IMG/VR virus record: IMGVR_UViG_3300045988_160394
Location: 64,001-128,000 of that record
DNA length: 64,000 bases
Reading direction: 5' to 3' (one strand)
From: a virus
The translations under genes and the position numbers were made by a program. Below the pieces are notes generated by a model. That model worked only from the letters and a program-made list of their open reading frames with translations. It made no database searches and had not been told where the DNA came from. Shown here one piece after another: positions 5,396 through 62,247 of the stretch (position 1 is its first letter; each line of letters begins with the position of its first letter).

Positions 5396-6172
5396 ATGGA
5401 TAGTGGAAAAATGTTTTTATGCTATGTACCTAAAAAGCATATTACAGATGCTTTAATAGATCAGGTAGACTGATTAATTGAAAACGAATATAGCAATTAT
5501 AATGATTGCGTTATTATAGATAATATAAGTAAGGGATATAGAATATATCCTAATGATTTAAAAGCTATGATGTCTAGATGTAGTTATAGTGAATTATTAG
5601 ATAATATATATGATAATATAAATAAAAATAAAACATCAATTATTTTAAATGATTTTGATATAGATATAGATGATTTAAAAGATGTTTATTCAGAAATTAT
5701 AAAAGAAAAGAATATAACCATTATTATTTTTAATAGCATTAGAACTGATAATGAAGATAAACTTATGATTAAAATTAAAAAAGATTTAAAAGAATTAAAA
5801 GAAGATAAGTGATCTGAATTAAAATCAGAAATCCTTGAACATATTGATGAATATATGGATAGATTTGATTCAAATAATGAAATTTTTGATCCAGAAGAGG
5901 ATAGTGACGATGAAGGGTTACAAGAATTATTAGATTTAATTAGCAAAGAATTATCAGAAGAATGTGAAGAAGATGAAGAATCTTATAATAGATTTGCTTT
6001 AAAAAGTATTAAAGAAAGTTATACTTATCAAAAGAAACAGGATGTATTATCAGTTTCTTTAACTACTGGTAACGACTTAATATTATCTGATGGAGAAGAA
6101 CAAATATTAATAAAAAATAATATGATTAATCATTTGTTAGAAACAATAGAACATATTAGAGGGAAAAAATAA
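5396..6172 (+). CDS. hypothetical acidic protein (two in-frame TGA codons)
   Basis: ATG 5396 with an AAAGGTGAG RBS. One frame joins an unlisted 5' part to ORFs 5567..5812 and 5855..6172 through TGA 5471-73 and TGA 5810-12. TAA stop. Confidence 0.6.
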
Positions 6173-6196
6173 AGTTCAAGGGGAGAATGCAAAAAT

Positions 6197-6877
6197 ATGA
6201 TTAAAGAAGAATATGGTTATTATGAAGATTTAAAAGAATACAGTAATGAGGCAATAGTAAAAAGAATACAGGAAACAGATGATCCTAGACTATGAGATGA
6301 ATTAGATAAAAGAACTAAAAGAGTATTTAGCTCAGTAATGAGAGATGAAGTTCATCCTTATTATAAAGAAAATATGAGAGATGATATCTTAAGCGTATTA
6401 AGAATAGGGTGAGTAAAAGCTGTTAAGACATATGATGAGTCAAAAGCTACAGCTGAATTTGTTCCTTATTGTAGTTTTATTATGTGACAAAATTATAGAA
6501 TGTTTGCTAGAAGAATTACTAAAGAAAAAGTAGGTAATTCAGTTAGAGACGAACCATTATCATGTGTATCAGCAGATGGTTATTCAGATAATGAAAAGAT
6601 GTCACAAGGTTGTATAGACATAATCATGAAACATGATTGTGAAGAATATAAAGCTATAGAATCAAAAGACTTTGTTAATAGCTTATTAGAAAAACTTAAA
6701 GAACATGATGAAGTTCAATATTTGATTATTAAGAAACATTGTATTGAAGGAATAACTCAAAAAGAGTTAGGACAAACATTACAAATGTCGCAATCATATA
6801 TATCAAGAAATATAAAAAAGGGAATGGCATTCTTAAAACAAGAGTTAATACTTGAAGGACAGAAATTAAAGATGTAA
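6197..6877 (+). CDS. sigma-70 family RNA polymerase sigma factor (three in-frame TGA codons)
   Basis: ATG 6197 with an AGGGGAGA RBS. TGAs lie at 6293, 6410 and 6485. Read-through gives a region-2-like segment, LRIGWVKAVKTYDESKATAEFVPYCSFIMWQNYRMFARR. A region-4 HTH, GITQKELGQTLQMSQSYISRNIKKG, follows. Confidence 0.75.
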
Positions 6878-6898
6878 AATTAAATTAGATAAAATAAA

Positions 6899-6927
6899 GG
6901 AACCAGATTTTATTGCTGGTTCTTTTT
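6899..6927 (+). terminator. rho-independent terminator
   Basis: GGAACCAG-loop-CTGGTTC followed by TTTTT. Confidence 0.65.
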
Positions 6928-6973
6928 ATTGTTTAATTTAAAAGAATATTATTATTTAGGAGGATGATTGAAA

Positions 6974-8408: not shown

Positions 8409-8410
8409 AT

Positions 8411-9637: not shown

Positions 9638-9663
9638 ATTTTAGAATATTGGAGGTAACAATA

Positions 9664-10380: not shown

Positions 10381-10450
10381 AAATACTTGCAAATAGGACA
10401 AGTTAAATATAAAATATAATAGAGGATTACTTCTCTATAATCATAGTATT

Positions 10451-10481: not shown

Positions 10482-10536
10482 AATGTACAAAATGAATTAT
10501 AAAAAAAATAAATTGAAAAATCAGGAGGATTTAATT

Positions 10537-13816: not shown

Positions 13817-14050
13817 ATGGCAGAAAGAATTATACAAAAAGAATTAGCAGAAGCTATGGCTCCAAGATATAAATCTTATGGTTTATATGTTGTTAAAGAT
13901 AGAGCTTTACCTAGCTTATATTCTGGTTGTAAACCCGTTCTTCAAAGATCATTGTACTCAATGTTTGAAATGGGATTAAAAAGTACAGCTAAGATAAAAA
14001 AATCTGCTAGAGTTGTTGGAGATGTAATAGGTAAATATCATCCACACGGT
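13817..14050 (+). CDS. gyrA: type IIA topoisomerase subunit A, exon 1
   Basis: Ends ...VIGKYHPHG, then runs into intron sequence. The canonical motif continues as HPHGD at 15311. Confidence 0.85.
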
Positions 14051-15310
14051 TGTTGAAAAATAGTATATATTTTGCAATAATTTATTTTTCATTCATATAG
14101 TAAATATATAAACAGAATTTATTATAAGAATGGAGAAATAATTTTATGAAAAAAACAGAATTTAATGAAACACAAATAAAAGATATAGTTGAAAGATATA
14201 AAAATGGAGAAGCTATTATGAACATTAGAAAAGATTATAATGTTAGTCATAGTACTATTAATAGAGTATTAAAAGAAAATAACGTTGCAATTAGAGGTAA
14301 TAGGAAACATTTTTATAACGAAGATATTTTAAAAAAAATAAATACAGCTGAAAAAGCTTATTGAATAGGATTTATTACAGCAGATGGTTATATTAATGAA
14401 GATAGAAATTTTATGAGAATAAAGCTTCAAGAAAAAGATAAAGATCATTTATATAAATTTATGAAATTTATCGGAGGAGATGAAGGTATGATAAAATATG
14501 AATTTCATAATATAACTGGTAATAAACAATGATATATAGAAGTTAGTGGTAAGACTTTTATTAAGTCGTTAGTAGAATTAGGAATAAGACAGAAAAAAAG
14601 TTCTAATGAGCAATGGTGTAATAAGATTCCAGAAAAATATATAAAAGATTATATAAGAGGAATAATAGATGGAGATGGGCATATATCTTTGGAAAATAAA
14701 AGATTTGACATATGTAATTCAGAATCGTTATTAATACAATTGCAAAATTTCCTAATAAAAGAATATAATACTTCAAAAACAAAAATATATGATCATTGTA
14801 ATACAAAAAGATTGTTTGTAACAGTTAATGCTACAGATATATTGTTTGATTTATATTATAAAAAGTGTGTATCATTAGATAGAAAATATAAAACTGTTAA
14901 AATATTAAAGCAATTAATAGAACTATAATTGCCGTGTATAAATAGGGTAAAATCGGTTCCGACAGCTTAAACAAAAAGATGGATGGTTTAAGTATGGTGG
15001 TATATAAAGAAGAGAGGCTTAATTGCTAATACCGAGGTAAAGATAAGTTTAAAACCTTATGCTCACCGTAACGCATAGACATTGAAACTTTATTAAATTA
15101 AAGAATATAATATGTCCAAGAGTGCCCTACACAGAATTGAAAAATATTCTCCTAGGTCAAGTAATAGCTTGATGTGAAAATGTATGCTAGGCTGGACTAG
15201 AATTAACTAGTCGATGAGGTTAGTTATTAACCAAATGAGTGAAAACTCCAGAGTCAGGTGTAGGAATAGACCTACTATTAATAGATAAAAAGCCCTGAGA
15301 TAATAACATT
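14051..15310 (+). mobile_element. group I intron interrupting gyrA between HPHG and D
   Basis: Exon homology resumes exactly at 15311. The 5' exon ends in T and the intron ends in G. A GC-enriched, helix-rich block (14929-15310) lies downstream of the embedded endonuclease ORF. Confidence 0.75.
14146..14928 (+). CDS. intron-encoded LAGLIDADG homing endonuclease with an N-terminal HTH (two in-frame TGA codons)
   Basis: TGA 14362-64 and TGA 14530-32 join ORFs 14146..14364 and 14689..14928 in one frame. Two LAGLIDADG motifs appear: (W)IGFITADGYI and IRGIIDGDGHI. Confidence 0.8.
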
Positions 15311-17550
15311 CGGATGTATCTGTATATGATACTATAGTTAGAGCTTCTCAAAAGTGGAATATGAGATATCCAATCGTAGATATGCCATCAAATAATGGTT
15401 CTATAGATGGAGATGGAGCAGCTGCTATGAGATATACAGAATGTAGACTAACAGCTTATGGCGAAAAGTTATTAGAAGGTATAAATAAAGAAACAGTTGA
15501 TTTTAAACCTAACTATGATAACTCAGAAACAGAACCTGTTGAACTACCATGTATGCTACCTAACTTATTAGCTAATGGAGTAGAAGGTATAGCAGTTGGT
15601 ATGGCTGCGAATATACCTCCTCATAATTTAACAGAGCTATTAACAGCTGCTAGAAGAATAATAAGTGATGCTAAAGAAGAAAAAGAAACTTCTTTAGAAG
15701 ATTTAATGACTATAATAAAAGGACCAGATTTCCCTGGCGGTGGTATTATAGTTAACAAGAAAAATCTTAAAACAGCTTTTGCTACTGGTAAAGGTAGAAT
15801 AACTTTAAGAGGTAAAACTGATATAGTAGAAGATAAAAAAGGACATAAAACAATAAATATAACTGAAGTCCCTTATCAAGTTAAACCTATTGAATTAGTT
15901 AATAAAATATATACTCTTGCTAGAGATGGGAAAATAGAAGGTATTAAAGAAGTTGAAGATGAATCAGATAAGAACGGTATGTGTTTATCTGTAAAACTTA
16001 AAAAATCAGCTAATCCAACTTTAGTATTAAATAATTTATACAAGTTAACAGATTTACAAAAGAATATAAACTATAATATGAATGCATTAATAGGTGATAC
16101 TCCTGTTGATGTAACATTATTAGATTATTTAAATGAGTATTTATCTAACTCATTAAATATCTTATTAAGAAGAACTAACTTTGATCGTGATAAAGATATG
16201 AAAAGAATATCAAACTTAGAGGTTATATTCTTATATCTTGAAAACAAAGAAGATATAGTTGCAATAATTGCTTCATCAGATAATCCAGAAGAAGAATTAA
16301 AAGAAAAATATGAATTAGCTGATGAACAAATTAGCTTTTTATTAAATACTAGATTAGGTTCTTTAAAGAAAGCTAGTATTTCTAAATATCAAGAAGAATA
16401 TGACCAGTTAAATGAAAATGTAACTGAATATACAAAGATATTAGAAGATGAAGGATATGCTTTAGATGTTCTTTCTAAAGAATTATCTGAATTACAAGAA
16501 CAATTTGGAGATGAAAGAAGAACTCAAATTGAATTAGACGTTAATGGAGATATTGCAGAGGAAGATTTAATTCCAGATGAACCATTAGTTGTTACAATTA
16601 CATCTGATGGCTTAATAAAAGCTGTTGATGAAAAAGAATATAGTACTCAAAAGAGAGGTGGAAAAGGAACTAAAGCAGCATCTACTAAAGATGATGAAAT
16701 AGTAACTGATCTATTCTCTATTAATAGCAAAGATGATATCTTATTTATGACTGATAAAGGAAGATGTCATAAGTTAAAAGGATATTCTATACCTAAAGTA
16801 GGTAAGAATGCTAAAGGAAGACATATTAATAACTTTATTAAGTTAGAAGAAGGCGAAAATATAGTATCTGTTATGCCCGTAAAAATTAAAGATGAAGCAG
16901 AACATTCTATACTATTTGTAACAGCTTTAGGACAAATTAAGAGATTATCTATAAGCGAATTAGGTTCTAGATATACAGCTATTAAAGTTCTAAAGATAAA
17001 AGATGGAGATGGTCTTCAAACTTGTTTAAAAGTTAATGAAGGTCAAGATGTTATGCTTTGTACAGCAAAAGGTCAATCAATAAGATTTACTGTATCAACA
17101 GAAACTAAAAAGCCAATTAGACCTCAAGGAAGAACTGCTTCTGGAGTTATAGGTATAAAAGTAGCTGAAGATGACTATGTTATCGGAGCAACTATCATAG
17201 ATGATGAATCTAATATCTTAACTTTAACTAGCAATGGTTTAAGTAAGCAAACAAAAGGTGCTGCTTGGGAAGCTAAGCAAAGAGGTGGAAAAGGAATACT
17301 TTGTCATAAAATAACAGAGAAAACAGGAGACTTAGTTTCAGTATTATCTGTTAAAGAAGATGATGAATTATTTGTTGGAACTGAATCTGGTAAAATAATC
17401 AGATTAAAAGCTAATTCTATAGCAACTTCAGGAAGATCTGCTATAGGAAGTAAAGCTATTAAGTTAGATGAAGGTGATTATGCATTTACAGCATCTTTAG
17501 CTCCAGCTAACAATGAAGAAGTTGAATTAGAAACTACAGAAGAGGCGTAA
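15311..17550 (+). CDS. gyrA: type IIA topoisomerase subunit A, exon 2 (2-nt frame offset at 15359-15364)
   Basis: 15311-15358 encodes DVSVYDTIVRASQKWN, matching DSAVYDTIVRMAQPFS. The rest, MRYPIVD...AAAMRYTECRL with the catalytic Tyr, is read from ATG 15361 in a different frame, to TAA 17550. Confidence 0.8.
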
Positions 17551-19128: not shown

Positions 19129-19773
19129 ATGACAATGAGTTTAGCAGAGAAAAGAAAGAAAATGTCCCAAATGATGGGGAAAATAAATGATAAGGTAGGT
19201 AAACAAGTAATAGGATTTGCATCAGATCCTGTTATGAAAGATAGATTAACTATCCAATGGATACCTATGCCATCATTAAGAGTTAATGAAGTAACTGGTG
19301 GTGGAATACCTAAAGGTAAGATAAGTGTTGTAGCTGGTGATTCAGATTCAGGTAAAACATCTTTAATGTTAGAAACTATAGGGTTAAACATGAAGAATAA
19401 TCCTGACTTTATGGCTTTATGGTTAGAATCAGAAGAATCTCTAGAGTTAGAAGCTTTAGAAAATGTTTTTGGTATTGATTTAGATAGATTCGTAGTAATA
19501 TATCTAGATAGAGATGGAGCAGCAGAAGTAGCTTTAGATAGATTAGAAGCTGCTTTAGGTATGGGTGTATTCGATATGTGTGTAATAAACTCATTAAAAT
19601 GTTTAACACCATCTACTGAATTTGAAAAAGCTATGGGTGAAGCTACTATAGGTATACAAGCTAGAATGAATGGTAAACTTATGAGAAAGATGACTACGTT
19701 AATAGCAGAACACGGTTGTGCTTTTGTATTAATAAACCATCTTACTACTGAGATAGGTAAAATGCATGGAGAT
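19129..19773 (+). CDS. recA: RecA/UvsX-like recombinase, exon 1
   Basis: Walker A GDSDSGKTS. Walker B CVINSLK. QARMNGKLMRKM. Ends ...EIGKMHGD before intron sequence. Confidence 0.8.
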
Positions 19774-20931
19774 TTTGCGTTAGCTGGATAATTAGTGATA
19801 TCTCATATAATAAGATATGAGGTGATAAAATTGAGATATAAATGGACTCAAAAAAAAGTAGATTTATTAAAAAAATATTATGAAGAAGGTTTAAGTAATA
19901 AAGAAATAGCTAATAAAATGGGTACTACTGTTCATAGTGTTTCTGGGAAAGCTAAAGAACTTAAATTGAGAAAAAATTTATCAAAAGTATATAATTTATT
20001 AACTGATAAAGAAAAAGAATATATAAAAGCCAATAGTTTAAAAAAATCTATCACTCAGATAGCAAAAGATCTGAATAGAGATAAAGAAACAATAAATAAG
20101 TATATTAAACAAAATAATTTAGTTACAAAATTTAATTTATTTGATCATTTAATGACTAATGAGGAATTTGTTAAAGATTTTAAAAATCCTTCATTATCAC
20201 ATGCTTTTTTAGGTAGAAAATATAATGTTACTGATTGAGTTATAAGAAAATGAAGGTTAGCAAACATAGGTAATTACAAACAAATGACAGATACTTATTT
20301 ATGTAAGTCAACTTCTGAATTAGAGGTTGAAAAAATATTAGAAGAATTAGATTTGGCTTATATTTATGAAAAGAAAATTCTTGATTGAAAAGTAGATTAT
20401 TACTTAGGCTTTAAAACTATAATAGAAGTTCAAGGTGATTACTGGCATAATCTTGATAAGGTAAAAGAAAAAGATAAACGTAAATTTAAAGAACTTCGAG
20501 ATAATGGATTTACTATTATAGAAATATGAGAAAGTGAATTATCAAATATAGATTTAATAAAAACTAAGATATTATCCAATTTTAGGGTCTCCCTTAAGGA
20601 GTAATTCTTAAGTAAAAAACTTGGTGAACTGTTTGCTTAACAGGTGTGCAATTAACGTTAAAGTAGCTATAGTAAATGATAGTTAATAATTGTGCTAACA
20701 GGGAACATTGCTAACGGCAATCCTGTGCCAAGACTTATTATCATGATAAGTAAGGTCAAGAGACTATCGAAAACAAATAATAAATATAACTCCTATAAGG
20801 AGAATAAGGTATTGTAGGATACACGAAGTGAGTAGAGTACGGTAGAGATAAGCACTACTGGAAGTGCCAAGTCCCTTATTAGTATTAAGGGTAAAGATAT
20901 AGTCCGACATCATAAAATAATTGTGATGTTG
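19774..20931 (+). mobile_element. group I intron interrupting the recA-like gene
   Basis: Exon 2 resumes at 20932, giving GD|PLVLAGGRAIRYSS. The 5' exon ends in T and the intron ends in G. AAGATATAGTCCGAC (20894-20908) matches the J8/7-P7 consensus of group I introns (Tetrahymena AAGATATAGTCGGAC). Confidence 0.8.
19831..20604 (+). CDS. intron-encoded homing endonuclease, N-terminal HTH plus C-terminal Vsr-like PD-(D/E)XK domain (four in-frame TGA codons)
   Basis: TGAs at 20236, 20251, 20386 and 20527. Read-through gives ...VDYYLGFKTIIEVQGDYWHNLDK...LRDNGFTIIEIWESEL, which resembles Vsr FVHGCFWH...VWECEL. The start is ambiguous (TTG 19831 after GAGGTGA, or GTG 19795). TAA stop at 20602-04. 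Confidence 0.65.
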
Positions 20932-21528
20932 CCATTAGTTTTAGCTGGAGGTAGAGCTATAAGATATTCTTCTATGCTTACTTTAGATATAAGAAAAAGA
21001 TCTATTCAAGAAGCAGATCCTGTATCTAGAGATGAAGGTATGAAGATAGGAGTTACTATAAATAAAAATCACTGTAGACAAGATAGAATGCCTTATTTAA
21101 AAACAGAATATTTCGTTGTTTATGGACAAGGTACAGAACGTTCTATAGAAATAATAGAATTAGCTGAAAAGTGTGGTATTCTAACTAAAAAAGGTTCTTG
21201 GTATAGAGAATATTCAGGAGAAACTGATAGTAAAGGAAATCCTATAGAAAGAATTTTATCAGATGGAACTAAAGCTGCTTGGAATGGTATGAAAAATACT
21301 AGAGCATATATCTTAAGTCATCCAGAATATTTTGATTATCTAGTAAATAAAGTTGAAAACTTTGGTCAAATAGATGTCGAAACTCTATCAGAAGAAGAAA
21401 TTCAAAGATTAGAAGAAGAACATAAGTTAGAAGAAGCTTCAGCTAGTGAACAAGATATAACTCTTGATGATATAATACAAGATCCTGATACAACTGAAAC
21501 AAAAAAATCTACTAAGAAAAAGAAATAA
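20932..21528 (+). CDS. recA: RecA/UvsX-like recombinase, exon 2
   Basis: PLVLAGGRAIRYSSMLTLDIRKRS matches RecA ..TTGGnALKFYaSvRldiRR. Acidic C-terminal tail. TAA stop. Confidence 0.8.
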   Translation, partial: PLVLAGGRAIRYSSMLTLDIRKRSIQEADPVSRDEGMKIGVTINKNHCRQDRMPYLKTEYFVVYGQGTERSIEIIELAEKCGILTKKGSWYREYSGETDSKGNPIERILSDGTKAAWNGMKNTRAYILSHPEYFDYLVNKVENFGQIDVETLSEEEIQRLEEEHKLEEASASEQDITLDDIIQDPDTTETKKSTKKKK

Positions 21529-21582: not shown

Positions 21583-22233
21583 ATGAGTTGTGAATTTGGG
21601 TATACAGATTGTAAAAATGAAGGAAAAAGATGTGATTTGTGTTTTGATGCATCAAATTATGTCCCTGCTAAACCTAAAACTCAAGGACTAAGAAAGAGAA
21701 ATACAGAAAAAGCAACTGGTAGAATGGGAGAATATTTCGAAAGAAATAATAATAAGGCTGTTAAAAATAATATTCAATCAGTTGTAACTAGTATGACACC
21801 TAACTCAGGAGCGGGTAAGGTTAAAGGTGATCAACAGATCACTGGTATGATTAGGATAATGGAAGAATTAAAGACTCAAGATCCTCACCGTGCAAGAGGT
21901 CATAATCAATTTACTATTCAACGTAAATGGTTAGATAAATTAGATAGAGAAGCTCCTGTTGAAAATATGGAATTCTGGTATCTAAAGTTTGCTTTTTGTG
22001 ATACAGATAGTAATCATTATATAGTCTTTGACGCAGATCAAATGAGAGATATGGTTGCTACTTTAATACACGACAGAAAGAAAGTAAATGATGCTGATGC
22101 TAAAGTAAAAGTAGCAGATACTAGAAGAGTATTAGCAGAAGCAGAATCAACAAAACTATTTGCAGAAGTTGAATACTTAAAAGCTATTTTAAACAAAGAA
22201 GGAATTGAGTACGATGATTATTCAGGACACTAA
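21583..22233 (+). CDS. putative PD-(D/E)XK nuclease / Holliday-junction-resolvase-like protein
   Basis: The pattern GEYFE...TPNSGAGKVKGD...IMEELK resembles the Hjc-type E..SG..D..ExK arrangement. The gene sits between two RecA-like genes. Confidence 0.35.
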   Translation: MSCEFGYTDCKNEGKRCDLCFDASNYVPAKPKTQGLRKRNTEKATGRMGEYFERNNNKAVKNNIQSVVTSMTPNSGAGKVKGDQQITGMIRIMEELKTQDPHRARGHNQFTIQRKWLDKLDREAPVENMEFWYLKFAFCDTDSNHYIVFDADQMRDMVATLIHDRKKVNDADAKVKVADTRRVLAEAESTKLFAEVEYLKAILNKEGIEYDDYSGH

Positions 22234-22933
22234 TTTACAAGAAAAAATATCTAAATCTATTTTAAAATATGAAGAGGTTTTTGGAGGCAAATATAAGATG
22301 GAACAAAAATATTTGTTGACTGGGAATAGCGTTTTAAATGAAATGCTACATGGTGGTTATAAAAAAGGTACTAGCACTGAAATAAGTGGTATGAGTGATA
22401 CAGGTAAAACTTTTTTAGCTATTAAAGCTATATTAGAAGCTCAAAAAGAAAATAAGATGACTATTTATATAGATACTACTTTAAAATTAACAAATGATGT
22501 TCTAACTGATAATAATATAGATCCAGATGGTGTAATTATTATTAGATCAAATAAAGCTGATAGTTTAGGACCTACACTTAAATCTATAATTGAACCTTAT
22601 TCTGATGAAATAGGCTTAATAATTATAGATGATTTAGCAGGCTTAACAACTTCTTATGAACAAGAATCTTCTATTAAAAAGAATACTGATATTCATAGAA
22701 GCAAAGTTGTAAAATCTTTATTGATGAGAATAAGCAATCTTATTAGAAATACTGAAATAACTTGTTTAGTAATTAATCAAGAAAGAAGCAATTTTGATAA
22801 CGAAGATATAGAAGTAGTATCTTCTTTTGAAAAATGAATTCAAATGTGTTGTGACACTAGAATCAAGCTTGTTATTGATGAAGATGGAGATGCTTGTGTA
22901 GATGTTAAATTTAAAGAAAAGAGGTTAAAGTAA
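22214..22933 (+). CDS. RecA-superfamily ATPase paralogue (RadB/Sak4-like; one in-frame TGA)
   Basis: Walker A SGMSDTGKT. Walker B LIIIDDLAGL. TGA 22835-37 extends ORF 22205..22837 to TAA 22931-33 (...SSFEKWIQMCCDTRIKL...). Confidence 0.6.
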
Positions 22934-37439: not shown

Positions 37440-37715
37440 ATGACTTTTGAAAAATATTGTAATGGAGTAATTGAAGATTTTATTGAAGATGTTGAGTTAA
37501 AACTATGTCTAGAACTAACTCAAGATCAGAAAGATGATATTTATACAGCTATGGAAGAACATAAAGAATGTTTTGAAGAAGAATATGAATCTTTCTGTAA
37601 AGAAGACGCTGAAATGATTATTTCTGTTATATATTCTGAATCAGTTGCTATAGAATGTATGAATTGTAATGAAACAATTATAGATACTGATGTTTTGTTT
37701 TTAGGTAATGAATAA
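37440..37715 (+). CDS. hypothetical acidic protein
   Basis: ORF track. GGAGGAGG RBS. Confidence 0.5.
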   Translation: MTFEKYCNGVIEDFIEDVELKLCLELTQDQKDDIYTAMEEHKECFEEEYESFCKEDAEMIISVIYSESVAIECMNCNETIIDTDVLFLGNE

Positions 37716-39382
37716 TGATAGAAGTAAAAGATTATGGACATTATTATAATGTATCATTCAATGGAGATAAGGATAATTATCATAAATTTTTTAACTTTAT
37801 GGTATCTAAAGATGATATTGTAAAATTAAAAAAGAAAACTGGATGAAAGATGCCTAAATGTTATTTACCTGAATTAGAAGAAACATTTAATAATGTTGTT
37901 GAATTAATAGCTAATCCTTGGGATTATATAGGGGAAGGTTTAAAACTTTCTCCATATTGTTATCAAAAAGAAACAATTAAATTTGGAGTAGATAATAAAA
38001 AAGGTCTATTAATTTTGCCTTGTGGTTCTGGTAAAACACCTATTCTTGTAGGTATATATCATGAACTTAGAAAGAATAATTTAACTACTAAACCAGGAGC
38101 AATTATTGTTAAAGCATCTTTAAAGTATCAATGAGTGAAAGAAGTAGAAAAATTTTCAGATTATATAGCAAAAGCCATAGAAACTCCTTCTAAAGTTAAA
38201 AAGAAATTTGATGAGCAATTTGAAAACGCTGATTTATTTATATTAAATTATGAAACATTAAAGAATAAACAAGTAGCTGCTAAGTTAAGAGAGAAGAATG
38301 TAGAAGTAATGCTATTAGACGAAATACATTACATAAACAATCATACCTCTGCTAGAAGTAAAGCTGCTTATGAATTTAATGATTTGAAGTATTTAATAGG
38401 GGCTACTGCTACGCCAATTACTAATAACCCAGAAAATTTATTTGGAATATTTAATCTTATAGAAAAAGATCTATTCCAGTCCCACAGTAAATTTGCTAGG
38501 TCATATATAAAATATGCTGGTTATGGAAGAGTAGCTGGTTGCAAAAATGAAGATCATTTAAAGAAGAAGATAGCTCCATATATATTTATTAAAAGCGAAG
38601 CAGATGTTGCTGATCAATTGCCATCTCTTGTTGTTAATCAAAAATATTGTTATATTACTAGTCCTATTATGCAAGAAACTAATGCTAAATTGTTTGAGGA
38701 ATTAGATGTAGTCAATAATCAAATTAAACAATTAGAGAAAAGATATCCTAATCCAAAAGATTTAGAATCTAATGAAGAGTTTTTAACAGCTAAAGGTAAG
38801 GTAATGGCATATCAAACTTTTCTACAAGAATTAGTAGACGATCCTAGATTATTAAATGAATCAGAAAGTAATTTAGCTAAACAATATCATTGTCAAGAAG
38901 AATCTCCTAAGTTAAAAATGCTATTTGAACTAGTAGAAGAAATAACTGAAGCTGGTAGTAAAGTATGCATATTTACTAAGTATGTTCGTATGCAAAACAT
39001 ATTACAAAGGGAATTGGAAAGATATTTCGATTTTAAATGTGTTATAATTAATGGCAGTATGACTCCAGAAGAAAGATACGAAGCTGCTTATACTAAATTT
39101 GGAGACAATGATGATTATAAAGTATTGATAGGTACTGATGCTATGGCAGAAGGAATATCTTTATCTAAGTGTAATTATCTTATAGAATATGATTTAGCAG
39201 ATTCATATGCCATTCAGACACAAAGACATGGTAGAATAAAAAGAGCTAATTCAGTTCATAAAACTGGATACGTATATCAATTGATATGCGTAGATAGTTG
39301 GGATGAAGTACAGCAAAAGATAATAGCTAAAAAAGAGAATTATGATAATAATTTAATACAGAATATAGGAGAGTGAAAATAA
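37715..39382 (+). CDS. SNF2-family helicase (three in-frame TGA codons)
   Basis: ATG 37715 (TAATG overlap). TGAs at 37847, 38132 and 39374 join an unlisted 5' part to ORFs 37850..38134 and 38135..39376. PCGSGKT. ASLKYQ[W]VKEVEKF matches the SNF2 QW..E motif. LLDEIHYI. Motif VI QRHGRIKR. True stop TAA 39380-82. Confidence 0.8.
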
Positions 39383-41085: not shown

Positions 41086-41334
41086 ATGAAAAAAGTATTA
41101 GTAGAAGAAGAATTCTTATCTAATCAAGGATGTTCTGAAGAATATGAATGAGCCTCTTATGAATTATATGTAGATGGCGAAGAAGTATTAAATTTTAAAC
41201 ATAATACTGAAGTTCCAGAAGAAAATACATTATTTCATAATTTTAAAGACTGTCTTAATATTCTTCCTTTATTAGAAACATTCTATAATTTAGGAAAAAA
41301 CAATATAGATATAGAATTTAAATTGAAAGAATAA
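41086..41334 (+). CDS. hypothetical small protein (one in-frame TGA; absent from the ORF track)
   Basis: ATG 41086, about 11 nt after GGAGGGGGA. Open for 83 codons through TGA 41149-51 to TAA 41332-34. Confidence 0.5.
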
Positions 41335-45140: not shown

Positions 45141-45788
45141 ATGTTAATGGATAATGTAAAACAAGTATTTATTGTTCCGTATGATAAAACAACTGATATT
45201 AGTAATGGATTTACTAGACAAAAACATGACGCATCTATTTGAAAAAAATATAATGATATAGGAAAATTTATTGATATTGATGTTGCAAATGATAATATAG
45301 CTATGCAACAAATAACACCTTTTACAATAATAAAAAGAGGTAATAAATATTTAACAACTGTATTTAATCAAAATGGATTTGAAAAATTATCTATTGGAAT
45401 AGGCAATAATATAGAAACTCAAGATGGAGTTTCATCACCTTTGTTTAATGGGGCTGTTAGAACTTTATTAGAAAGTGTAAATATAGATTGTTTAGTTCCA
45501 TTAATCCATGTAGGTACAGTTAGAGATAAAAATAAACTTCCTAATTATATTGGATATGTTTTTGTATTTAATGATATAGCAGAATCTGTTGTATATAAAG
45601 ACAAAATTGCTTATAAAAGTGGTGGTTGTAATTATTATACAAACAATGTTGATAATCACGATAAAGATGATATATCATATGAAATAAAAGGTGAATGGTT
45701 AACAATTGATGAATTAATTAATAAATATGGTAAACTTGATACTTGGACTCGTCATATTGTCAGCTATTTAGTAGATTCTGACTTCTAA
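45141..45788 (+). CDS. hypothetical protein (one in-frame TGA)
   Basis: ATG 45141 after GGAGG. TGA 45240-42 joins an unlisted 5' part to ORF 45303..45788. Confidence 0.55.
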
Positions 45789-49834: not shown

Positions 49835-50080
49835 ATGAACGAAAAATTTAAAAATTATGGATTATGGGTTTCTTTATTCGCTTTACTAGGATTATTCTTA
49901 TCTGATATGAGTTGAATGCCTCATAACTATGATATGTATGTATCAATAATACTAAGTATCTTAGTCGGTTTAGGAATAGTTTCTAGCCCTGAAAAAGGAA
50001 AGTGGTATGGTGATAAACAAGATCAACTTCCACAAGAAAATGAAGAACCTAAAGACATATCTGAAAAAGACAAAAAGTAG
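49835..50080 (+). CDS. holin (phi LC3-type; one in-frame TGA; absent from the ORF track)
   Basis: ATG 49835 after GGAGGT. MNEKFKNYGLWVSLFALLGLFLSDMS[W]MPHNYDMYVSIILSILVGLGIVSSPEKGKWYGD has two TM segments and a charged tail. TGA 49913-15. TAG stop at 50078-80. Confidence 0.6.
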
Positions 50081-50142: not shown

Positions 50143-53100
50143 ATGCAGAATAAATATATACCGTCTCATTTACATACTACTACAGGTAGTATAGGAGACT
50201 CAATAATAAAAATACCAGAACTAATTAAAAAAGCTAAACAACTAGATTTGCCTGCAATCGCCATCACTAATCATGGGTCTATGGCAGATATGTATGATTT
50301 TTATTTTGAATGCGTTTCTAACAATATAAAACCTATTATTGGATGTGAAGTATATACAACTGATGATATGGATTATAAAGAAAAAGATGCAAGACGAAAT
50401 GGACATCTAGTTATTTTAGCAAAGGATAACAATGGATTAAAGAATTTACTATCTATAACAGCCGCTGCACAATTACAAGGTTTTTATTATAAGCCTAGAA
50501 TTGATTATAACTTCTTAGAATCTACTGATACTTCTGGTTTAATAGCTACAACAGCTTGTGCAGGAAGTGATGTTAATCAATTGATATTACAAGATAAAAT
50601 AGAAGAAGCTAAAGAATTGATATTAAGGATTAATAATATATTTGAAACGTTCTTTTTAGAAATCCAACCAGGTGATTTCGATGAACAGAAAAAAATAAAT
50701 AAGCAATTGATAAAATTCAGCAATGAATTAAAGATACCATTAATAGCTTCTAATGATATACATTATTTAAATGCAGAAGATTTTATAGCACATGATGCTC
50801 ATGTTAAAAGCTATAGAAAACAGAAGTTGAATGATACGCTTTATTATCCTGATACTTGTTATTATTTAATGACAAGAGAAGAATTATTTGAAGCGTTATC
50901 TAAATATGTAAATGAAGATATTGCAAATACGGCTATTAATAATACTTTATTATTAAATGATATGTGTAACGTTGTTATAGATGTAAATGAATTAAATCTA
51001 CCTACTTTTCAGTGTCCACAAAAAATGACACCAAAAGCTTATCTAGAATATATCTGTTTACAAAAAATAGATAAAATAAAAGATAAGATTTGTGATGTAG
51101 TAGAGTATACAGATAGAATGTATATGGAGCTAGAAGTAATAGATAAATTAGGGTTCTGTTCTTATTATTTAATAGTAAGAGACTTTATGGAATATGCAAG
51201 AGAAAATAATATACCATATGGACCAGGCAGAGGTTCTGTATGTGGTTCATTAGTAGCTTATTTAGCAGGATTAATAAAGATAGATGCTATTAAATATAAT
51301 CTGTTATTTGATAGATTTTTATCTATTCATAGAACTGGTTCTATTCCTGATGTTGATTCAGATTTTGGATCATCAGGAAGACAAATGATGTTCGACTATG
51401 TTGTTAATAAGTATGGAGCAGATCATTGTGCAGCAGTTTCTACATTCCAAATGAGAAAAGCAAAATCAGCTATTAAAGATGCAGCTAGAATGTTAGACTT
51501 AGTTGAAGAAGGAGAGTGTATAGCTAAACTTATTCCTATGGTCTATTATGATGATGATGGAGATAAATTAACAGATTTATCTATAGAGGATTCTTTAAAA
51601 GCTGTTGAGGAATTAAGAGAATTTAAAGAAATATATCCTAAAATATTTGATATAGCCATGAAGATGGAAGGATTACCTAGATCTTCATCTATACATGCTG
51701 CTGGAACATTAATAGCTAAAACTCCATTGCATGATTTAATACCTATGATTAAGAAAAAAGATAGTGACTTATTAAATGCTACTAGTTTCGATTTATCTCA
51801 AGCAGAGAAAATGAAATTAGTTAAATATGATTTCTTAGGGTTATCTACTTTAGATGTATTAGAAGAAACTAAGAAAACAACAGGTTATTATTTTGATATA
51901 GAATTTGATAAATATGATGATGAAAATGTATGGAAGTTAATAGGTTCTAGAAATACTACAGCTTTATTCCAAATAGCTTCTTCTACTTATAAACAAAGAA
52001 TGTGGAGATTAAAACCACAAACAATAGAAGAATTAGCTGCTTGTTTAGCATTAGTTAGAGGACCTTGTATTTCAGCTAAAACAGATCAAACATATATAAG
52101 AATATTAGAAGGTAAAGAAGAAGTAAAAACAATTCATCCTTTTTATGATAATGCCGTTAAAGATACATTAGGTATTATGATATATCAAGAACAATTAATG
52201 GAATGTTGTCATAATTTTGGTTTACCTTTACATGTATGTTACGATATAATGAAAGCAGCGGCTAAAAAGAAGTTTGATAAACTTGAAAGTTATGAACAAG
52301 AATTGTGGGAATTGGCCGAACCACATATGAGTAAAGAAACTTTCGATATTATCTTTAAGATAATAGTTGATTCTGGATTATATTCATTTAACAAATCACA
52401 TGCAGTTGCTTATGCTACTTTATGTTATGAAACAGCATATTATAAATACTATTATCCTAAAGAATATTTAGCAGCTGAACTTACTAACATTTTTACATCT
52501 GTTGCAGCAGACAAAAGAAAAGAAAGAGTTGCTGAAACTGTTAAAGACTGTAGAAGATTAGGTATTAAATTTTTACCTATAACAGCACAAGATTCTGAAT
52601 GGAAATTTAAAGTCGAAGGTGATTCTATAAGAATAGGTATGTGTTCCATATCTTCTTTTGGTGAAAAAGCTTATAACGCCTTTTCTTTAGTTGAGGATAA
52701 AACAAGTATTGAATCCGTTTTTGAATCTGTTAATAAAACAACCTGTAATAAAAAAGCTTTTAATGCTTTAATATTTGCAGGTGCTTTTGGTGATAGAACT
52801 CAAGCATATTTAAAATATTGTGAATTAAGAGATGAATCACCAGTAGATGAAATAGTTTTTCATAAAACATTACGTGTTAATATATATGAAGATGATAGAG
52901 AAATAGAAGAAAAACTATTATCTTATAATTTTATATATAATCTAACAAACAATTTAAATGCTTTCGGATACAAGAATTTAAAGAAGAAAGCAGAGTTTTA
53001 TTGCGATGCTTTAATTACAAGAGTAAAAACAAAGAATGATAAGAATAAAAATAAAATGGCATGGATAACATTAGAGACAGGAGACGGCATTATAGAAGGT

Positions 53101-53217
53101 GTCGTCTTTGCTAATGTATATGCTAAATATAGAGCTCTTATTAAAAAAGATTCTTTTGTAAAAATTAAAGCAAGAAAAGAAGATGATGAAACTTGTTTTG
53201 TTAGTAGCATAGAATAG
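50143..53217 (+). CDS. dnaE: DNA polymerase III alpha subunit (DnaE-type)
   Basis: PHP domain HLHTTTGSIGDS...ITNHGSM. Polymerase core GPGRGSVCGSLVAYL, IPDVDSDF. C-terminal OB region. Confidence 0.9.
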   Translation: MQNKYIPSHLHTTTGSIGDSIIKIPELIKKAKQLDLPAIAITNHGSMADMYDFYFECVSNNIKPIIGCEVYTTDDMDYKEKDARRNGHLVILAKDNNGLKNLLSITAAAQLQGFYYKPRIDYNFLESTDTSGLIATTACAGSDVNQLILQDKIEEAKELILRINNIFETFFLEIQPGDFDEQKKINKQLIKFSNELKIPLIASNDIHYLNAEDFIAHDAHVKSYRKQKLNDTLYYPDTCYYLMTREELFEALSKYVNEDIANTAINNTLLLNDMCNVVIDVNELNLPTFQCPQKMTPKAYLEYICLQKIDKIKDKICDVVEYTDRMYMELEVIDKLGFCSYYLIVRDFMEYARENNIPYGPGRGSVCGSLVAYLAGLIKIDAIKYNLLFDRFLSIHRTGSIPDVDSDFGSSGRQMMFDYVVNKYGADHCAAVSTFQMRKAKSAIKDAARMLDLVEEGECIAKLIPMVYYDDDGDKLTDLSIEDSLKAVEELREFKEIYPKIFDIAMKMEGLPRSSSIHAAGTLIAKTPLHDLIPMIKKKDSDLLNATSFDLSQAEKMKLVKYDFLGLSTLDVLEETKKTTGYYFDIEFDKYDDENVWKLIGSRNTTALFQIASSTYKQRMWRLKPQTIEELAACLALVRGPCISAKTDQTYIRILEGKEEVKTIHPFYDNAVKDTLGIMIYQEQLMECCHNFGLPLHVCYDIMKAAAKKKFDKLESYEQELWELAEPHMSKETFDIIFKIIVDSGLYSFNKSHAVAYATLCYETAYYKYYYPKEYLAAELTNIFTSVAADKRKERVAETVKDCRRLGIKFLPITAQDSEWKFKVEGDSIRIGMCSISSFGEKAYNAFSLVEDKTSIESVFESVNKTTCNKKAFNALIFAGAFGDRTQAYLKYCELRDESPVDEIVFHKTLRVNIYEDDREIEEKLLSYNFIYNLTNNLNAFGYKNLKKKAEFYCDALITRVKTKNDKNKNKMAWITLETGDGIIEGVVFANVYAKYRALIKKDSFVKIKARKEDDETCFVSSIE

Positions 53218-57657: not shown

Positions 57658-57781
57658 TTCCTGTTAATATAATAATAAGAAGATAGAATTTTATATCGAA
57701 TAATACTTTTTTGATTTTTAATACTTTATAATAGATATAAAAGATTCTATCTTTTTATTTTTATTTAAGGAGGAATTTAAA

Positions 57782-58090: not shown

Positions 58091-58092
58091 TA

Positions 58093-61000
58093 ATGCCACC
58101 TATTAATAAGATACCATTTAAAGTGAAATTAATGTCAGAATCATTAGCTGGCAAAAGTTATGATAAATCTAATATATCAAAACAATTTATTGTAATACAC
58201 AATATGGTTGGAACATCTGAAAGTTCCCTAAAATATTGGAATAGTGGCTCAGGTGGTCAATACACTTCTGCACATTATTGTGTAGATGATAAAGAAATTT
58301 GGCAAACTTTAAAAGATCAATGAGCAGGTCGACATTGTGGGAAACCTAGTCCTTGGGCAACTTTAAAGGGATGTAATAATAATACCTCTATTGGTATAGA
58401 AATAGCAGATATGCTTTGTAACCAAAAACAAGCTGTAGATAATGCTATTGATGTCGCTAGACATTTAGCAAAAGTTCATGGGATTCCATATGAAAATATT
58501 GTTAGACATAAGGATGTGTCTAATACTGATTGCCCAAAATGGATAGAAAGTCATAATTTATGGGATTATTTTAAAAAAGAAGTAGAAAGAAGAGATCAAG
58601 AAAACGTAGAATTGTGTTATGATCCTTCTACCGCAATATCTGGAGATGTTACACCAGGAGACAACGGTACTGCGTCACCAGAGACAGGTGGAAGTCAAAC
58701 TCTTCCTAACTTTGATAATAGGGAAGATTGAACAAATCTAAAAGAAATAAAAGGTGTTGTATTAGTTTGCATGCCTCCTCAACATTTTACTACTTTAAAA
58801 GATAAAGATGAAAAATGGGCAAAAGAAAAGTATGCTAAGGAGTTCCATTTTCTATATGATACTGAATGGAAAGAAGGTAAAGAAAAAACCTTAATAGCTA
58901 GATCATTGTTAGATAATGATAGGCACACTTATATAGAAAGAGCTTTATATAATAATAAAGCAGAAAAATCAGTATTAAGTGTAGGTATGTTTTTACCTCC
59001 TATGTTAGATGATTATCCAGCCTATGAAAAAAAATTAATAGATAATTTAGGCAAAGTAATTTATGAGAATAAATTAAACACTAAAGATCTATGGAGAGAA
59101 TTTGATTTCAATAGGACACCATCACCATTTATGTATCTTGATAGAGAACAATGGAAAAAGTTTTTAAGAGAGATAGATAAGCAAGTTAAATGGAGATATG
59201 AGAAATTTGGAGAACCTCTTCAACCAGAGAAAGATCCAACTCAAGATAATACTGATTATTCAAATATAAAAGAGAATATAGGTAAAGAAACAGTTACTTC
59301 AAGATATTGCTTATTAAGAGCAAATCCTAGCATGACTAGCCCAATAATACTGGCTTTAGAAAAGGATGTGCCTTTAACAATTACAGATGCAGATACTAGA
59401 GGCTATTATAAAGTTAAATTAGCAACAAATCAAAAAGAAGGTTGGTTAGTCGCTAAGAGCGTTAAAATAGAAAAAGAAGAAGAAAAAGCTACTTTAAAAC
59501 CATTAGTATTAGCTGCTGTTAAAGAAAAAGATATTCCTCAGCCAGAGATAACTCCAACTATGACTCATGACCAATATTTAAAATGGAAAGAACTAACCGA
59601 TCCTAAATTAATAGATGAATTTGTTGGAGAGTGTGAACCTTACGATAAAGGACTAAAAGAAATCATAGATTCAGCTGTTAAAAATGATGATAGATTAACA
59701 TCTTTAACTAAGAATATGGAAACAGAGAATAACTCTACTATTAATTATTCAGTTACAGAAGCATCACCAGGAGATTCTGGTCATTGTGTTAAGCCTTCTG
59801 CTGAACTTAATGTATTAATAAAACCTAGAGAATCTATAAAAGTAGATCCTGTTTATCCTGATTTAATTGTTCCTCCAAATTACACTCCAACTGATTATAA
59901 TATAAGGTCTCAAAATTCTATTCCTATGGCTACATTAGAAGACGGATCTTTAATAAAAGACGCTAAAGATTTCGATAATGATCAATTAACGTTTGATTAT
60001 GAGCTATTAAATGATAAGAAAAAGATATCTAAAGGTAAACCTATTAACTATTTGGACCCTTATCCATATGATGATAAAATAATAGAACTAGAAAAACATC
60101 ATCCTAAAGTAAAGATAGATGAAATAGAAGCTAGACTATATGAAAGCAATCATCCAGGGGACCCTAGTTCACAACCAATGGCTAAAAATTTTGCATTGGT
60201 TTATGATGCTATGTTAAAACAATCTAGTAGTATAGAGAAAAGACTTGTGAAGATAGAAAATGTATTAGCTAATGTATTACGTAATCAAGGTAGAATTGGT
60301 TCAAGAATAAACGTAAATTGTGTTTATTATGGAGGTCAAGACTCCTTTGGAAAATATAAAACAATTAGATGTTTATGTGATGATAGAATACATGATGCAA
60401 GTTCTGTTACATTAGACCAATGTTTATCTTGTACTAGATACGAACCTATCTTAGGACAAGTATATGATATTCTAGATGATACAGGTATGAATGGAACTGT
60501 ATTCTTAGATAACATGCAAATGGGTTATATGAATTTAGATGATTTAAAAAATCTTAATAGAGTTGAAAAAAGATGTACTTCTAATGAATATGCAAATGTT
60601 AATAAAGAGATGGAAAAACCAGAATCTCAAATTAAGAGATGGGAAGAATCTGATAAGAAGATATATATAGAATCTCTTAAGAAAAAGATTACTGACGAAA
60701 AGGAATTAGATAAAAAGATAAAAGAGATAAAACAAGAAGATTATAGCTTCAAAATGAATTGGTATGAGCAAGATTTAGATGTTCAAGAACCAGATGTAAA
60801 ACCTTATCCATTAGAGGGAATTAAAGCTAGGTATAAAAAAATAAATCTAAGTAATCCAGGAGAAGAATCAGATAACTATCTAGAAAAAGAATCTGTATTA
60901 GATGATTCTACAGATCAAGATACTATAAAAGATATGACTGATTTAGAGAAATTAAATAATGGAGAATGGGTTGATACTAGAGAGGAAGCTGATACTACTG

Positions 61001-62247
61001 AAATAAATAAATATTCTTCTGAAGATTATTATTTTGAAGATTTTAATATAACTAGAGCAAGTAGTGGTGTAGGCTCATCACCTAGTGGAGTATTTGGAGC
61101 AGAAGCTCGTAAAAAAATTGTTGAGAAGGCTAAAGAAATTGTTCAATTACATGCAGAAGGCAAAGCAGGATATTCTCAAGGATCACCTCCTGGAAATAGA
61201 ACTGTTAATGACGAACACCGTATAATGGGTAGTAATTCTGTATTAAGTAATGTAGTAGTTTATGATTGTTCTTCATTTGTTTCTTGTTGCTATAAATATG
61301 CTGGATTAAATAGTATGTATAATAAAACTACTTACGATCAAGTAGCAGCAATGACAAGTAAAAAAATGCCTGAACAATTTTGGTTAGCAAATGCAGAAGG
61401 AGTAAAAAAAGCGTTACCAGGGGATTTAATGTTTAAAACCTCAGGTATATCAATGTCAGAAAGCAATATAGGTTCTTATGTTGATACAGAGCATGTAATG
61501 ATATATATAGGAGATAACAAAGTAGCACATGCTTCAAGTGGTAATAGACCAGTTCCAAAACAAATACCTATAGATAATGTTGATTATTATTTAAATTCAA
61601 GACATTTCTTTGCAAGACCTTGGGATTTAATAGAAGCTGATAAACAAGCTCAAGCTAATGGAGTTATAGGTGGAGGAGCTGAAGCAGTAGGAAACATAGT
61701 TACATCTAAAGGAGAAAACTTTGGCTATGTATACTCTTTCCCTAAAGCAGTTTGTTCTGTATATACCGATACTAATAAAGGTGCAAGTGGTGCTATGTGT
61801 ATACCAAGCGAAAGTAATATAGTAGCAGCTCATAATATGCCTTATGAAACAGTTATTTATATTAAAGAACTTGATGGAAAAGGCGGAGGAGGAACTGTTG
61901 CATTTAAAAACTGGTTAGGTATAACTACTCATACTAAAAATTTAGGTCAAGTCAATAACGGAGTCTTTATCGTTGGTGATACTGGTGGTCCATACTTTGA
62001 CTTTGATATATGTACAAATAAGTTTTCTAACAAAGGGAATATGGATGTTTTAGTGTTAGAATGGGGTAAATCAAAAATTCCTTTCTGGTCTTTCACAGAT
62101 GCAATTAACAATGAAGGTAGAGCTTTCCCTAAATATCCAGATGCTATTAGATCATATAAACGTATGAATGGAACAACAATTAACTTCTTTAAATTCAAAG
62201 ATAAAGATAAAGGATTAAGTCAAAGTTCAAAATGGACTTCTATTTAA
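58093..62247 (+). CDS. 1385-aa multi-domain peptidoglycan hydrolase: amidase_2/PGRP, SH3b-like, NlpC/P60, 3D-like domain (two in-frame TGA codons)
   Basis: TGA 58321-23 and TGA 58729-31 join ORFs 58093.., 58411.. and 58771..62247 in one frame.
- Amidase: VIHNMVG...SAHYCVDD...DQ[W]AGRHCG...NNTSIGIEIAD...RHKDVSNTDCP.
- SH3b-like: RYCLLRAN...GYYKVKL...GWLVAKSV.
- NlpC/P60: YDCSSFVSCCYKYAG...GDLMF...HVMIYIG.
- C-terminal 3D-like: VGDTGGPYFDFDI. Confidence 0.75.

Follow-up and report, generated by a model that had tools for sequence, protein, structure and literature searches.

TGA as a probable tryptophan codon in a low-G+C jumbo phage, with a long-armed tRNA(UCA) as candidate decoder

Introduction

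Several long reading frames in a stretch of viral DNA from IMG/VR (record IMGVR_UViG_3300045988_160394, positions 64,001 to 128,000; the whole stretch of 64,000 nucleotides is referred to here as the window) are interrupted by TGA, one of the three standard stop codons. The locus therefore raises the question of whether these TGAs end the genes or are read as sense codons and, if so, which amino acid they specify and which tRNA decodes them. The comparisons described below indicate that TGA is almost certainly a sense codon read as Trp in these genes. The broader interpretation, in which the phage as a whole decodes UGA as Trp (genetic code 4) with a phage-encoded tRNA of anticodon UCA as the likely decoder, is very probable.

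The window has a G+C content of 28%, with essentially every gene on the + strand. Since exact-protein look-ups recovered the same sequence on contigs of ~262 kb from at least 13 samples or independent assemblies, the source is considered a recurrent jumbo phage of the gut, and sequencing error is excluded as the origin of the TGAs. Relatives of 195–256 kb are present in IMG/VR, ENA and Logan assemblies; loci from these assemblies are designated below by L numbers.

TGA lies within genes and ends none of the longer ones

With only TAA and TAG treated as stops, the TGAs reported in the initial annotation lie in frame within ten long open reading frames (ORFs) of the + strand:

5396..6172, + strand: gene of unknown function, acidic protein of 258 aa; TGA at 5471 and 5810
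6197..6877, + strand: sigma-factor-like gene, 226 aa; TGA at 6293, 6410 and 6485
14146..14928, + strand: LAGLIDADG homing endonuclease gene in the gyrA intervening sequence; TGA at 14362 and 14530
19831..20604, + strand: GcrA/helix-turn-helix plus DUF559/Vsr-type homing endonuclease gene between the recA parts, start codon uncertain; TGA at 20236, 20251, 20386 and 20527
22214..22933, + strand: RecA/RadA-like paralogue, 239 aa; TGA at 22835
37715..39382, + strand: SNF2-family helicase, 555 aa; TGA at 37844, 38132 and 39374
41086..41334, + strand: small gene, 82 aa; TGA at 41149 (codon 22)
45141..45788, + strand: gene of unknown function, 215 aa; TGA at 45240
49835..50080, + strand: small hydrophobic protein gene, 81 aa; TGA at 49913
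58093..62247, + strand: Amidase_2, SH3 and NlpC/P60 cell-wall hydrolase, 1384 aa; TGA at 58321 and 58729

Nineteen of the 20 coordinates given earlier were exact. The remaining one, 37847, reads AAG, and the in-frame TGA of that gene is at 37844.

On the + strand, 68 genes encode 70 aa or more; TAA terminates 53 of them, TAG 15 and TGA none. The earlier statement that no gene terminates at TGA stands for all of these long genes, with the reservation that TGA 39374 may be a terminator (see below). When gene calls under translation tables 4 and 11 were compared, the only table-11 ORFs with a terminal TGA were nine pieces of the ten genes listed above. In-frame codons in the window genes comprise 21 TGA, 145 TGG and no TAA or TAG, compared with 232 and 1060 TGAs in the two other frames. 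The 21st TGA, which had not been listed, is found just past the HPHG motif that closes gyrA exon 1 (14054..14056, + strand). It lies within the gyrA intervening sequence and is not a sense codon, so that the number of coding TGAs is 20. TGG remains the main Trp codon (145 TGG against 20 coding TGA), and dnaE, nrdD, gyrB and the gene of the 1003-aa helicase contain no in-frame TGA, both as previously described.

The same pattern extends beyond the window. The 10-kb flank on each side, taken from the same phage, contains no TGA terminator and has seven further in-frame TGAs, for example in the genes for ThyX and an Amidase_3 endolysin. The ThyX gene (same phage, upstream of the window) encodes 128 aa under table 11 and 243 aa when the TGA at codon 21 is read through. 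Public table-11 annotations of this phage from other assemblies bear out the warning that about ten genes would be mis-annotated as fragments: in them, the lysin is found in pieces of 87/76, 106 and 1158 aa and the sigma gene is represented by a 125-aa piece.

Most of the TGAs occupy tryptophan positions

ORFs were translated with TGA as X and aligned to ORFs of the related loci, and the codon opposite each TGA was read. Homology continues past every TGA, in the same frame, in all ten genes. Trp is the homologous residue at 14 of the 19 informative positions (12 by codon and 2 by protein alignment), Gly appears once, and Ser and Cys are never the majority residue. The relatives have TGG at 12 of the 17 codon-checked positions (71%), namely 5810, 6293, 6410, 14362, 20236, 20251, 20386, 20527, 37844, 38132, 45240 and 58321. 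The conservation rate of the window TGG codons, used as a control, is equal to this (87 of 122, 71%), and TGA thus behaves like a Trp codon. The converse replacement was also observed, with a relative's TGA opposite a window TGG at 2952.

In the sigma-factor-like gene, all three Trp codons are TGA. An alignment of 15 homologues (A1) shows invariant Trp at X33 and X72 and a variable residue at X97. The two corresponding codons, 6293 and 6410, are TGA in L056, L058 and L066 and TGG in L059, L064, L065 and L067, such that TGA and TGG interchange between lineages at invariant positions; the third, 6485, is opposite T, Y, K, D, E or Q. In the gene immediately upstream, 5810 is TGG in four relatives and TGA in two, and 5471 is variable (D/E/Y/L). 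Among the homing endonucleases, 14362 is TGG in five relatives and 14530 is opposite G, Y or C, and the L072 orthologue of the DUF559/Vsr-type gene has TGG at all four positions. The Pfam match of the RecA paralogue ends just before X208 (TGA 22835), and homology reaches the C-terminus, with W at this position in 12 of 13 full-length homologues. The three closest homologues are cut short at this position and therefore also carry a TGA. In the SNF2 gene, TGG stands opposite 38132 in all 14 relatives and opposite 37844 in all three. For the 82-aa gene, the two closest independent homologues have W opposite 41149, and the conserved region (residues 23–81) is downstream of the TGA. Position 45240 is TGG in three related contigs, and 49913 is CTA (Leu) in relatives. 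In the cell-wall hydrolase, 58321 is TGG in three close relatives and Q or E in distant amidases, and 58729 is AAA (Lys) in relatives.

Domain profiles were examined for the families in which TGA had been placed at a Trp of the consensus. The SNF2 placement was upheld by a residue swap at 38132, which gives 80.1 bits for W and 70–71 bits for G, S, C and R. Pfam domains span the TGAs in the SNF2 gene (SNF2 and Helicase_C) and in the LAGLIDADG gene, where LAGLIDADG_3 covers both. The Vsr-like placement agrees with the four TGG codons of the L072 orthologue, but the profile swap is weak and mixed, since W scores best for DUF559 (20.9 bits) and G for Vsr. The Sigma70_r2 domain expected in the sigma gene has no Pfam match; only Sigma70_r4 was detected, below the cut-off.

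A long-armed tRNA with a UCA anticodon

A candidate decoder is located at the start of the window, outside the coordinates covered by the initial annotation, in the following arrangement:

2045..2073, + strand: candidate sigma-70-like promoter, TTTACA-17-TGnTATATT, ~55 nt upstream of the tRNA
2129..2247, + strand: 119-nt tRNA with anticodon UCA (Rfam tRNA model, 47.9 bits)
2248..2317, + strand: predicted HDV-like (hepatitis delta virus-like, theta-type) ribozyme, starting at the base after G73 of the tRNA
2340-2966: GIY-YIG gene
3045-3123: second predicted HDV-like ribozyme (36 bits, below threshold), 6 nt upstream of a tRNA-Gln

The anticodon loop of the 119-nt tRNA, CUUCAAA, presents the anticodon UCA, which reads UGA. 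The molecule has a canonical 7/5 cloverleaf with U8, A14, G18 G19, U33, a T-loop UUCGA and discriminator base G73. Its unusual feature is an insertion of ~46 nt in the variable region, which folds as a long hairpin. ARAGORN called four ordinary tRNAs in the window and did not call this gene.

The same tRNA is present in L056, L058 and L062 (identical in L062), and in L065 a 117-nt tRNA(UCA) carries an arm that is just as long but differs in sequence. In an alignment of the four distinct sequences (A4), all 84 cloverleaf cells pair, with compensatory changes in 10 of 21 pairs; none of 500 shuffles reaches this pairing, and slid registers are not close either. In L056, a C-G pair in the outer stem of the variable arm is likewise replaced by U-A. 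The anticodon arm, CTGGTCTTCAAAACCAG, is that of the L059 phage tRNA-Trp(CCA) save for C34 to U, and the L056 tRNA(UCA) has A1-U72, as do the phage tRNA-Trp genes; together these features point to descent from tRNA-Trp. The 119-nt tRNA is quite probably the UGA decoder. Its G73 and tRNA-Trp-like anticodon arm hint indirectly that it may be charged with Trp.

In L065 (2643-2941), two tRNA(UCA) genes are adjacent, the long-armed one of 117 nt and an ordinary one of 73 nt; in the 20 kb of this locus that was seen, TGA occurs only at or near gene ends.

Searches beyond these loci gave few matches. The 17-nt anticodon arm had 29 matches in IMG/VR, all of them unrelated tRNA(UCA) genes (many Sec-like) or chance. 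The 21-mer from the variable arm had one true match in JGI metagenomes (L062) and two by chance. A generic pattern (UCA loop, long gap, T arm) gave four chance matches in IMG/VR and no tRNA, and nhmmer with the tRNA(UCA) against all loci returned L056, L058 and L062 only. As no long-armed tRNA(UCA) was found in IMG/VR, the tRNA may be confined to this phage group.

The upstream promoter matches 10 of 12 consensus bases in the scan, has an extended -10 TG, and is a suggestive candidate for the promoter of the tRNA. The downstream element aligns full-length (1–74) to the HDV-F-prausnitzii family RF02682 (31.4 bits, E = 1e-4 in a local search) and is kept downstream of the tRNA in L058. On balance, the predicted ribozyme probably trims the 3′ end of the tRNA by cutting off the trailer. 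In L062, CCA follows the tRNA, and the second ribozyme comes ~70 nt later; the first ribozyme is missing together with the GIY-YIG gene, as though the two had been inserted as a single unit.

Alternative explanations

Several observations weigh against the reading of TGA as Trp by this tRNA. Five TGA positions (5471, 6485, 14530, 49913 and 58729) are not Trp in the relatives; this is the share expected of true Trp codons, given that 71% of the control TGG codons are conserved. At 58321, the proposed match to the 'aWHAG' motif of Amidase_2 did not hold, as the profile favours other residues (57.7 bits for W, 61.3 for G and 60.9 for R); the codon is nonetheless TGG in the three close orthologues. 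The SNF2 gene closes with GAG TGA AAA TAA, and its second-to-last codon, TGA 39374, is aligned exactly with the TAA stop of three orthologues at 77–78% identity. It may be a stop, or a two-residue extension backed by TAA, and is harmless under either code. A long variable arm combined with G73 otherwise marks tRNA-Ser, the anticodon arm is unmatched in the three closest IMG/VR relatives, and genes for tryptophanyl-tRNA synthetase (TrpRS) and release factors are both absent from the window. Promoter sites of the type found upstream of the tRNA are not more numerous in the region than in shuffles, and the score of the ribozyme is below the Rfam gathering score of 44. Lastly, the window is mostly an early/replication region and is poor ground for the idea of a late-gene gate, considered further below.

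The possibility that the TGAs are real stops, leaving pseudogenes, truncated proteins or separately translated downstream parts, is negligible. Fragments of this kind are what table-11 callers yield, two of the ten genes encode homing endonucleases, which are often decaying, and 39374 coincides with the stop of its orthologues; but homology and domains run across the TGAs in frame, the TGAs stand at invariant Trp positions and terminate no other gene, the same TGAs are kept in lineages only 62–77% identical in protein, and the 82-aa gene has its conserved domain after the TGA. It is highly improbable that TGA specifies a residue other than Trp, whether Gly (code 25, as in Gracilibacteria/Absconditabacteria and their phages), Ser, Cys or selenocysteine (Sec). 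Trp is found at 14 of 19 positions, with Gly only once and Ser and Cys never in the majority, despite the alignment of 14530 with Gly, one relative's TGA opposite a window TCA, and the higher Vsr profile score with G. The class-II-like variable arm and G73 do recall tRNA-Ser and tRNA-Sec, but, apart from C34 to U, the anticodon arm matches a phage tRNA-Trp. Bacterial tRNA-Sec is distinguished by 8/5 acceptor/T stems, a 6-bp D stem with a 4-nt loop, and use dependent on a selenocysteine insertion sequence (SECIS), features that were not found here; the tRNA(UCA) has 7/5 acceptor/T stems and a 4-bp D stem with a 10-nt loop carrying G18 G19. Twenty TGAs without a common downstream hairpin would also be a misfit for Sec insertion.

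Two further alternatives accept Trp but assign the decoding to the host. In one, a near-cognate host tRNA-Trp(CCA) or a weakened release factor 2 (RF2) allows UGA to be read, and the 119-nt tRNA is inactive or has another role. In favour of this, a giant variable arm is without precedent in Trp tRNAs, the gene escapes ARAGORN, and the examined stretch of L066, a relative with TGA in its sigma gene, yielded only a tRNA-Trp(CCA). However, read-through by near-cognate tRNAs is usually inefficient and would be too low for genes with three or four TGAs, and the tRNA(UCA) has kept its four stems through 10 compensatory pair changes together with the universal tRNA bases; this explanation is very unlikely. 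In the other, the host itself already uses code 4 (a Mycoplasma/Spiroplasma-like member of the Mollicutes or a reduced symbiont) and no phage-driven recoding is involved. The very low G+C content (28%) and the absence of TGA as a terminator are as expected for such a host. An AT-rich genome in an established code-4 host is expected to prefer TGA, whereas here TGA is only 12% of Trp codons (20 vs 145 TGG) despite the 28% G+C. The phage also encodes Amidase_2 and NlpC/P60 domains and, just outside the window, an Amidase_3 endolysin. These peptidoglycan hydrolases imply a host with peptidoglycan, and Mollicutes have no cell wall. The NrdD protein is ~70% identical to those of Clostridium sensu stricto and Peptostreptococcaceae, the phage has its own tRNA(UCA), and some relatives still stop at TGA. 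A code-4 host is scarcely plausible on this evidence. Glycine (code 25), serine, selenocysteine, pseudogenes, a code-4 host and assembly error are each contradicted by the evidence above.

Host and route to recoding

UGA decoding as Trp through the phage tRNA is the reading followed from here on. The host is probably a Clostridium-like bacterium, and is likely to use the standard code. Relatives in which TGA is still a stop were identified: in L059, L064 and L065, one to three of 13–23 genes end in TGA, and the sigma Trp codons are TGG. The TGA stops of these loci often have a TAA soon after or lie in an ATGA overlap. A path to recoding has been published in which G+C content is low, TGA stops are lost, a suppressor tRNA is gained and TGA returns as a sense codon (bioRxiv 10.1101/2021.08.26.457843); the window and its relatives fit this path.

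Distribution of TGA among genes

The coding TGAs are concentrated in 10 genes, compared with 15.1 expected from a random spread over Trp codons (P = 0.003). TGA accounts for 3/3 Trp codons in the sigma-like gene, 2/2 in the gene upstream of it, 2/3 and 4/5 in the homing endonucleases, and 3/5 in the SNF2 gene, and 39 other Trp-containing genes have no TGA. None was found in dnaE, nrdD, gyrB/A, primase or UvrD. Two cell-wall hydrolase genes contain it, as do the sigma, SNF2, RecA paralogue and homing endonuclease genes; the structural module is beyond the window. No significant 5′ bias of the TGAs within genes was detected (Mann-Whitney P = 0.15). Comparison of conserved Trp codons with the code-4 relatives (62–77% protein identity) gave 37 TGG-TGG pairs, eight TGA-TGA pairs (nine counted, less the intronic 14054) and one discordant pair. 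These numbers suggest that TGG is protected in most genes. The TGAs of the sigma gene and of the gene next to it likewise appear to be old, which would agree with a suppressor-dependent gate.

A model can be outlined from these data. They show TGAs at Trp positions, no clear TGA terminators and a conserved tRNA(UCA). The phage's own UGA decoder would be this tRNA, which looks to have arisen from a tRNA-Trp by an anticodon change of CCA to UCA. It would probably be driven by the host-type promoter and trimmed at the discriminator base by the adjoining HDV-like ribozyme, and a TrpRS of the host or phage could then charge it with Trp. Since the host probably uses the standard code, only some genes would tolerate TGA: the sigma-like gene with its upstream neighbour, the two intron-borne homing endonucleases, the SNF2 helicase, the RecA paralogue, three small genes and the large cell-wall hydrolase. 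TGG is retained in the core replication genes. Genes with TGA would be translated in full only when the suppressor tRNA is present, and this tRNA could serve as a translational timing gate. The existence of such a regulatory gate is conceivable but rather doubtful.

Two invariant sigma Trp codons are kept as TGA in four lineages, and the suppressor tRNA may therefore gate a phage transcription factor, in a tRNA-to-sigma cascade. We tentatively propose this cascade together with a suppressor of an undescribed kind, derived from tRNA-Trp and carrying a three-tiered variable-arm hairpin of 46–49 nt. At least two versions of the arm, the window type and the L065 type, are unrelated in sequence. 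The arm could determine tRNA identity or orthogonality, or give a phage factor something to grip.

Genome context

The Pfam content of the window corresponds to a replication, recombination and nucleotide-metabolism module, with the following features:

ClpP, a ClpX-like ATPase, SSB, GyrB and split GyrA
split RecA, a RecA paralogue, thymidine kinase and thymidylate kinase
a Pnk-phosphatase-RNA ligase fusion, Rad52, UvrD, SNF2 helicase, Gam, primase and a Sir2-like protein
NrdD/NrdG, dUTPase, DnaE, the 1003-aa helicase and the 1384-aa Amidase_2/NlpC-P60 protein
13817-17550: split gyrA, with a ~1.27-kb interruption after the HPHG motif that holds the LAGLIDADG gene
19129-21528: split recA, consisting of an N-terminal part (19129-19788), the endonuclease gene and a C-terminal part (~20923-21528)
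25093-27285: fusion protein of 730 aa, with AAA_33 polynucleotide-kinase-like, metallophosphatase and T4 Rnl1-type RNA ligase domains
63183-63266: skipping-rope RNA motif RF02924 (57.6 bits, above threshold)
L068 12204-15539, just outside the window: second DnaE, 1111 aa, on the minus strand, opposite to the window DnaE

The first gyrA exon ends in KYHPHG and the second starts with DVSVY, in agreement with the intact GyrA of L058. The gyrA intervening sequence of L056 is 97% identical to that of the window but lacks the endonuclease gene. The layout of recA, with two parts around an endonuclease gene, is the same in L072. An Rfam scan of the gyrA and recA interruptions detected no group I intron. 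The 730-aa fusion represents a tRNA-repair set, and it may be speculated that it heals the cyclic-phosphate ends made by ribozymes. The phage encodes two DnaE-type polymerase III alpha subunits, of 1024 aa (50143-53217) and, just outside the window, 1111 aa. An ARAGORN call about 750 nt past the end of the window (L068 12060-12134, same phage) is a tRNA with no assigned type, whose anticodon has four bases (tcta). Beside ThyX, in the region L070/L071 5133-8494 that holds both genes, a GroEL-like gene (876 aa) carries a Hom_end intein-type insertion. Among the relatives, a skipping-rope RNA is found in or beside the tRNA cluster of L067, and drum RNAs are found in L058 at 6335-6463.

A megablast search with 25 kb of the window gave no match to GenBank phages. 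No related loci were found in IMG/VR with the sigma, RecA-like and GyrB proteins, and the amidase protein retrieved distant amidases only.

Comparison with known recoded systems

Large low-G+C gut phages that use code 4 with suppressor tRNAs (Jade, Sapphire and Agate) have been described by Borges et al. (bioRxiv 10.1101/2021.08.26.457843), who also proposed a role of recoding in late-gene timing and detected suppressor tRNAs in only 35% of code-4 genomes, suspecting non-canonical structures in the others. The phage studied here resembles them in its low G+C content, a genome size in the range of ~150–260 kb, the near or full loss of TGA as a stop, TGA at Trp positions, a phage UGA suppressor tRNA, core replication genes that are largely spared, a predicted standard-code Firmicutes host (reported for Jade) and close standard-code relatives. 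The likeness is one of shared features; the window contains no terminase gene. In contrast to those phages, the window has no TrpRS/RF1 'code-change operon', TGAs reach beyond structural and lysis genes to a sigma-like factor, homing endonucleases and recombination/helicase genes, and a giant variable arm sets the suppressor tRNA apart.

Theta (minimal HDV-like) ribozymes beside phage suppressor tRNAs have been reported in recoded gut phages (PMC10879173, Kienbeck et al.). The predicted HDV-like fold directly 3′ of a suppressor tRNA corresponds to this arrangement, although the scores here are 31–36 bits and the gathering score of the nearest Rfam family is 44, and the tRNA-Sup partners there are mostly CUA/Gln, whereas the partner here is a UCA tRNA. 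The phage TrpRS:tRNA-Trp(UCA) pairs AP1 and HF2 were shown experimentally to insert Trp at UGA (PMC12636597). They share with the present system a phage UCA tRNA meant for Trp at UGA in a standard-code bacterium, but no TrpRS was found in the window, and the term 'variable arm' is absent from the text of that report.

Mycoplasmatales, Entomoplasmatales and their phages likewise translate UGA as Trp through tRNA-Trp(UCA). There, recoding is a property of the host, and most Trp residues are encoded by TGA. In the present phage, TGA supplies only a minority of Trp codons and is confined to certain genes, and the host seems to be a walled, Clostridium-like bacterium.

Long variable arms are known from class II tRNAs (Ser, Leu, bacterial Tyr and Sec) and from allo-tRNAs (PMC5389517). 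The tRNA(UCA) has in common with these a long paired variable arm, the G73 of tRNA-Ser and tRNA-Sec, and the UCA anticodon of tRNA-Sec and some allo-tRNAs. It differs in that the arm, at ~46–49 nt, is two to three times the usual length, the acceptor/T stems are 7/5 rather than 8/5, 8/4 or 9/3, the D arm is canonical, and the codon context indicates Trp and not Ser or Sec. No description of a Trp-type UGA suppressor with a 46–49-nt variable arm was found in the literature.

Since TGA-to-Trp recoding and Trp-inserting tRNA(UCA) are already published, the phage is a new example of a known recoding, and the giant-armed suppressor tRNA is the one element that may be new. As a well-controlled example of UGA-to-Trp recoding in a probable Clostridium phage, with standard-code and recoded relatives side by side, it should be useful for studying stop-codon capture. 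It also has a practical consequence for annotation, in that without table 4 about ten window genes, as well as outside genes such as those for ThyX and the Amidase_3 endolysin, are annotated as fragments. The long-armed tRNA(UCA) is a concrete case of the suspected non-canonical suppressor structure, and its giant variable arm shows why ARAGORN missed the suppressor here. It is an interesting candidate for an orthogonal UGA-decoding tRNA and, if the assignment is true, such long-armed tRNAs could explain part of the ~65% of code-4 phage genomes in which no suppressor has been detected.

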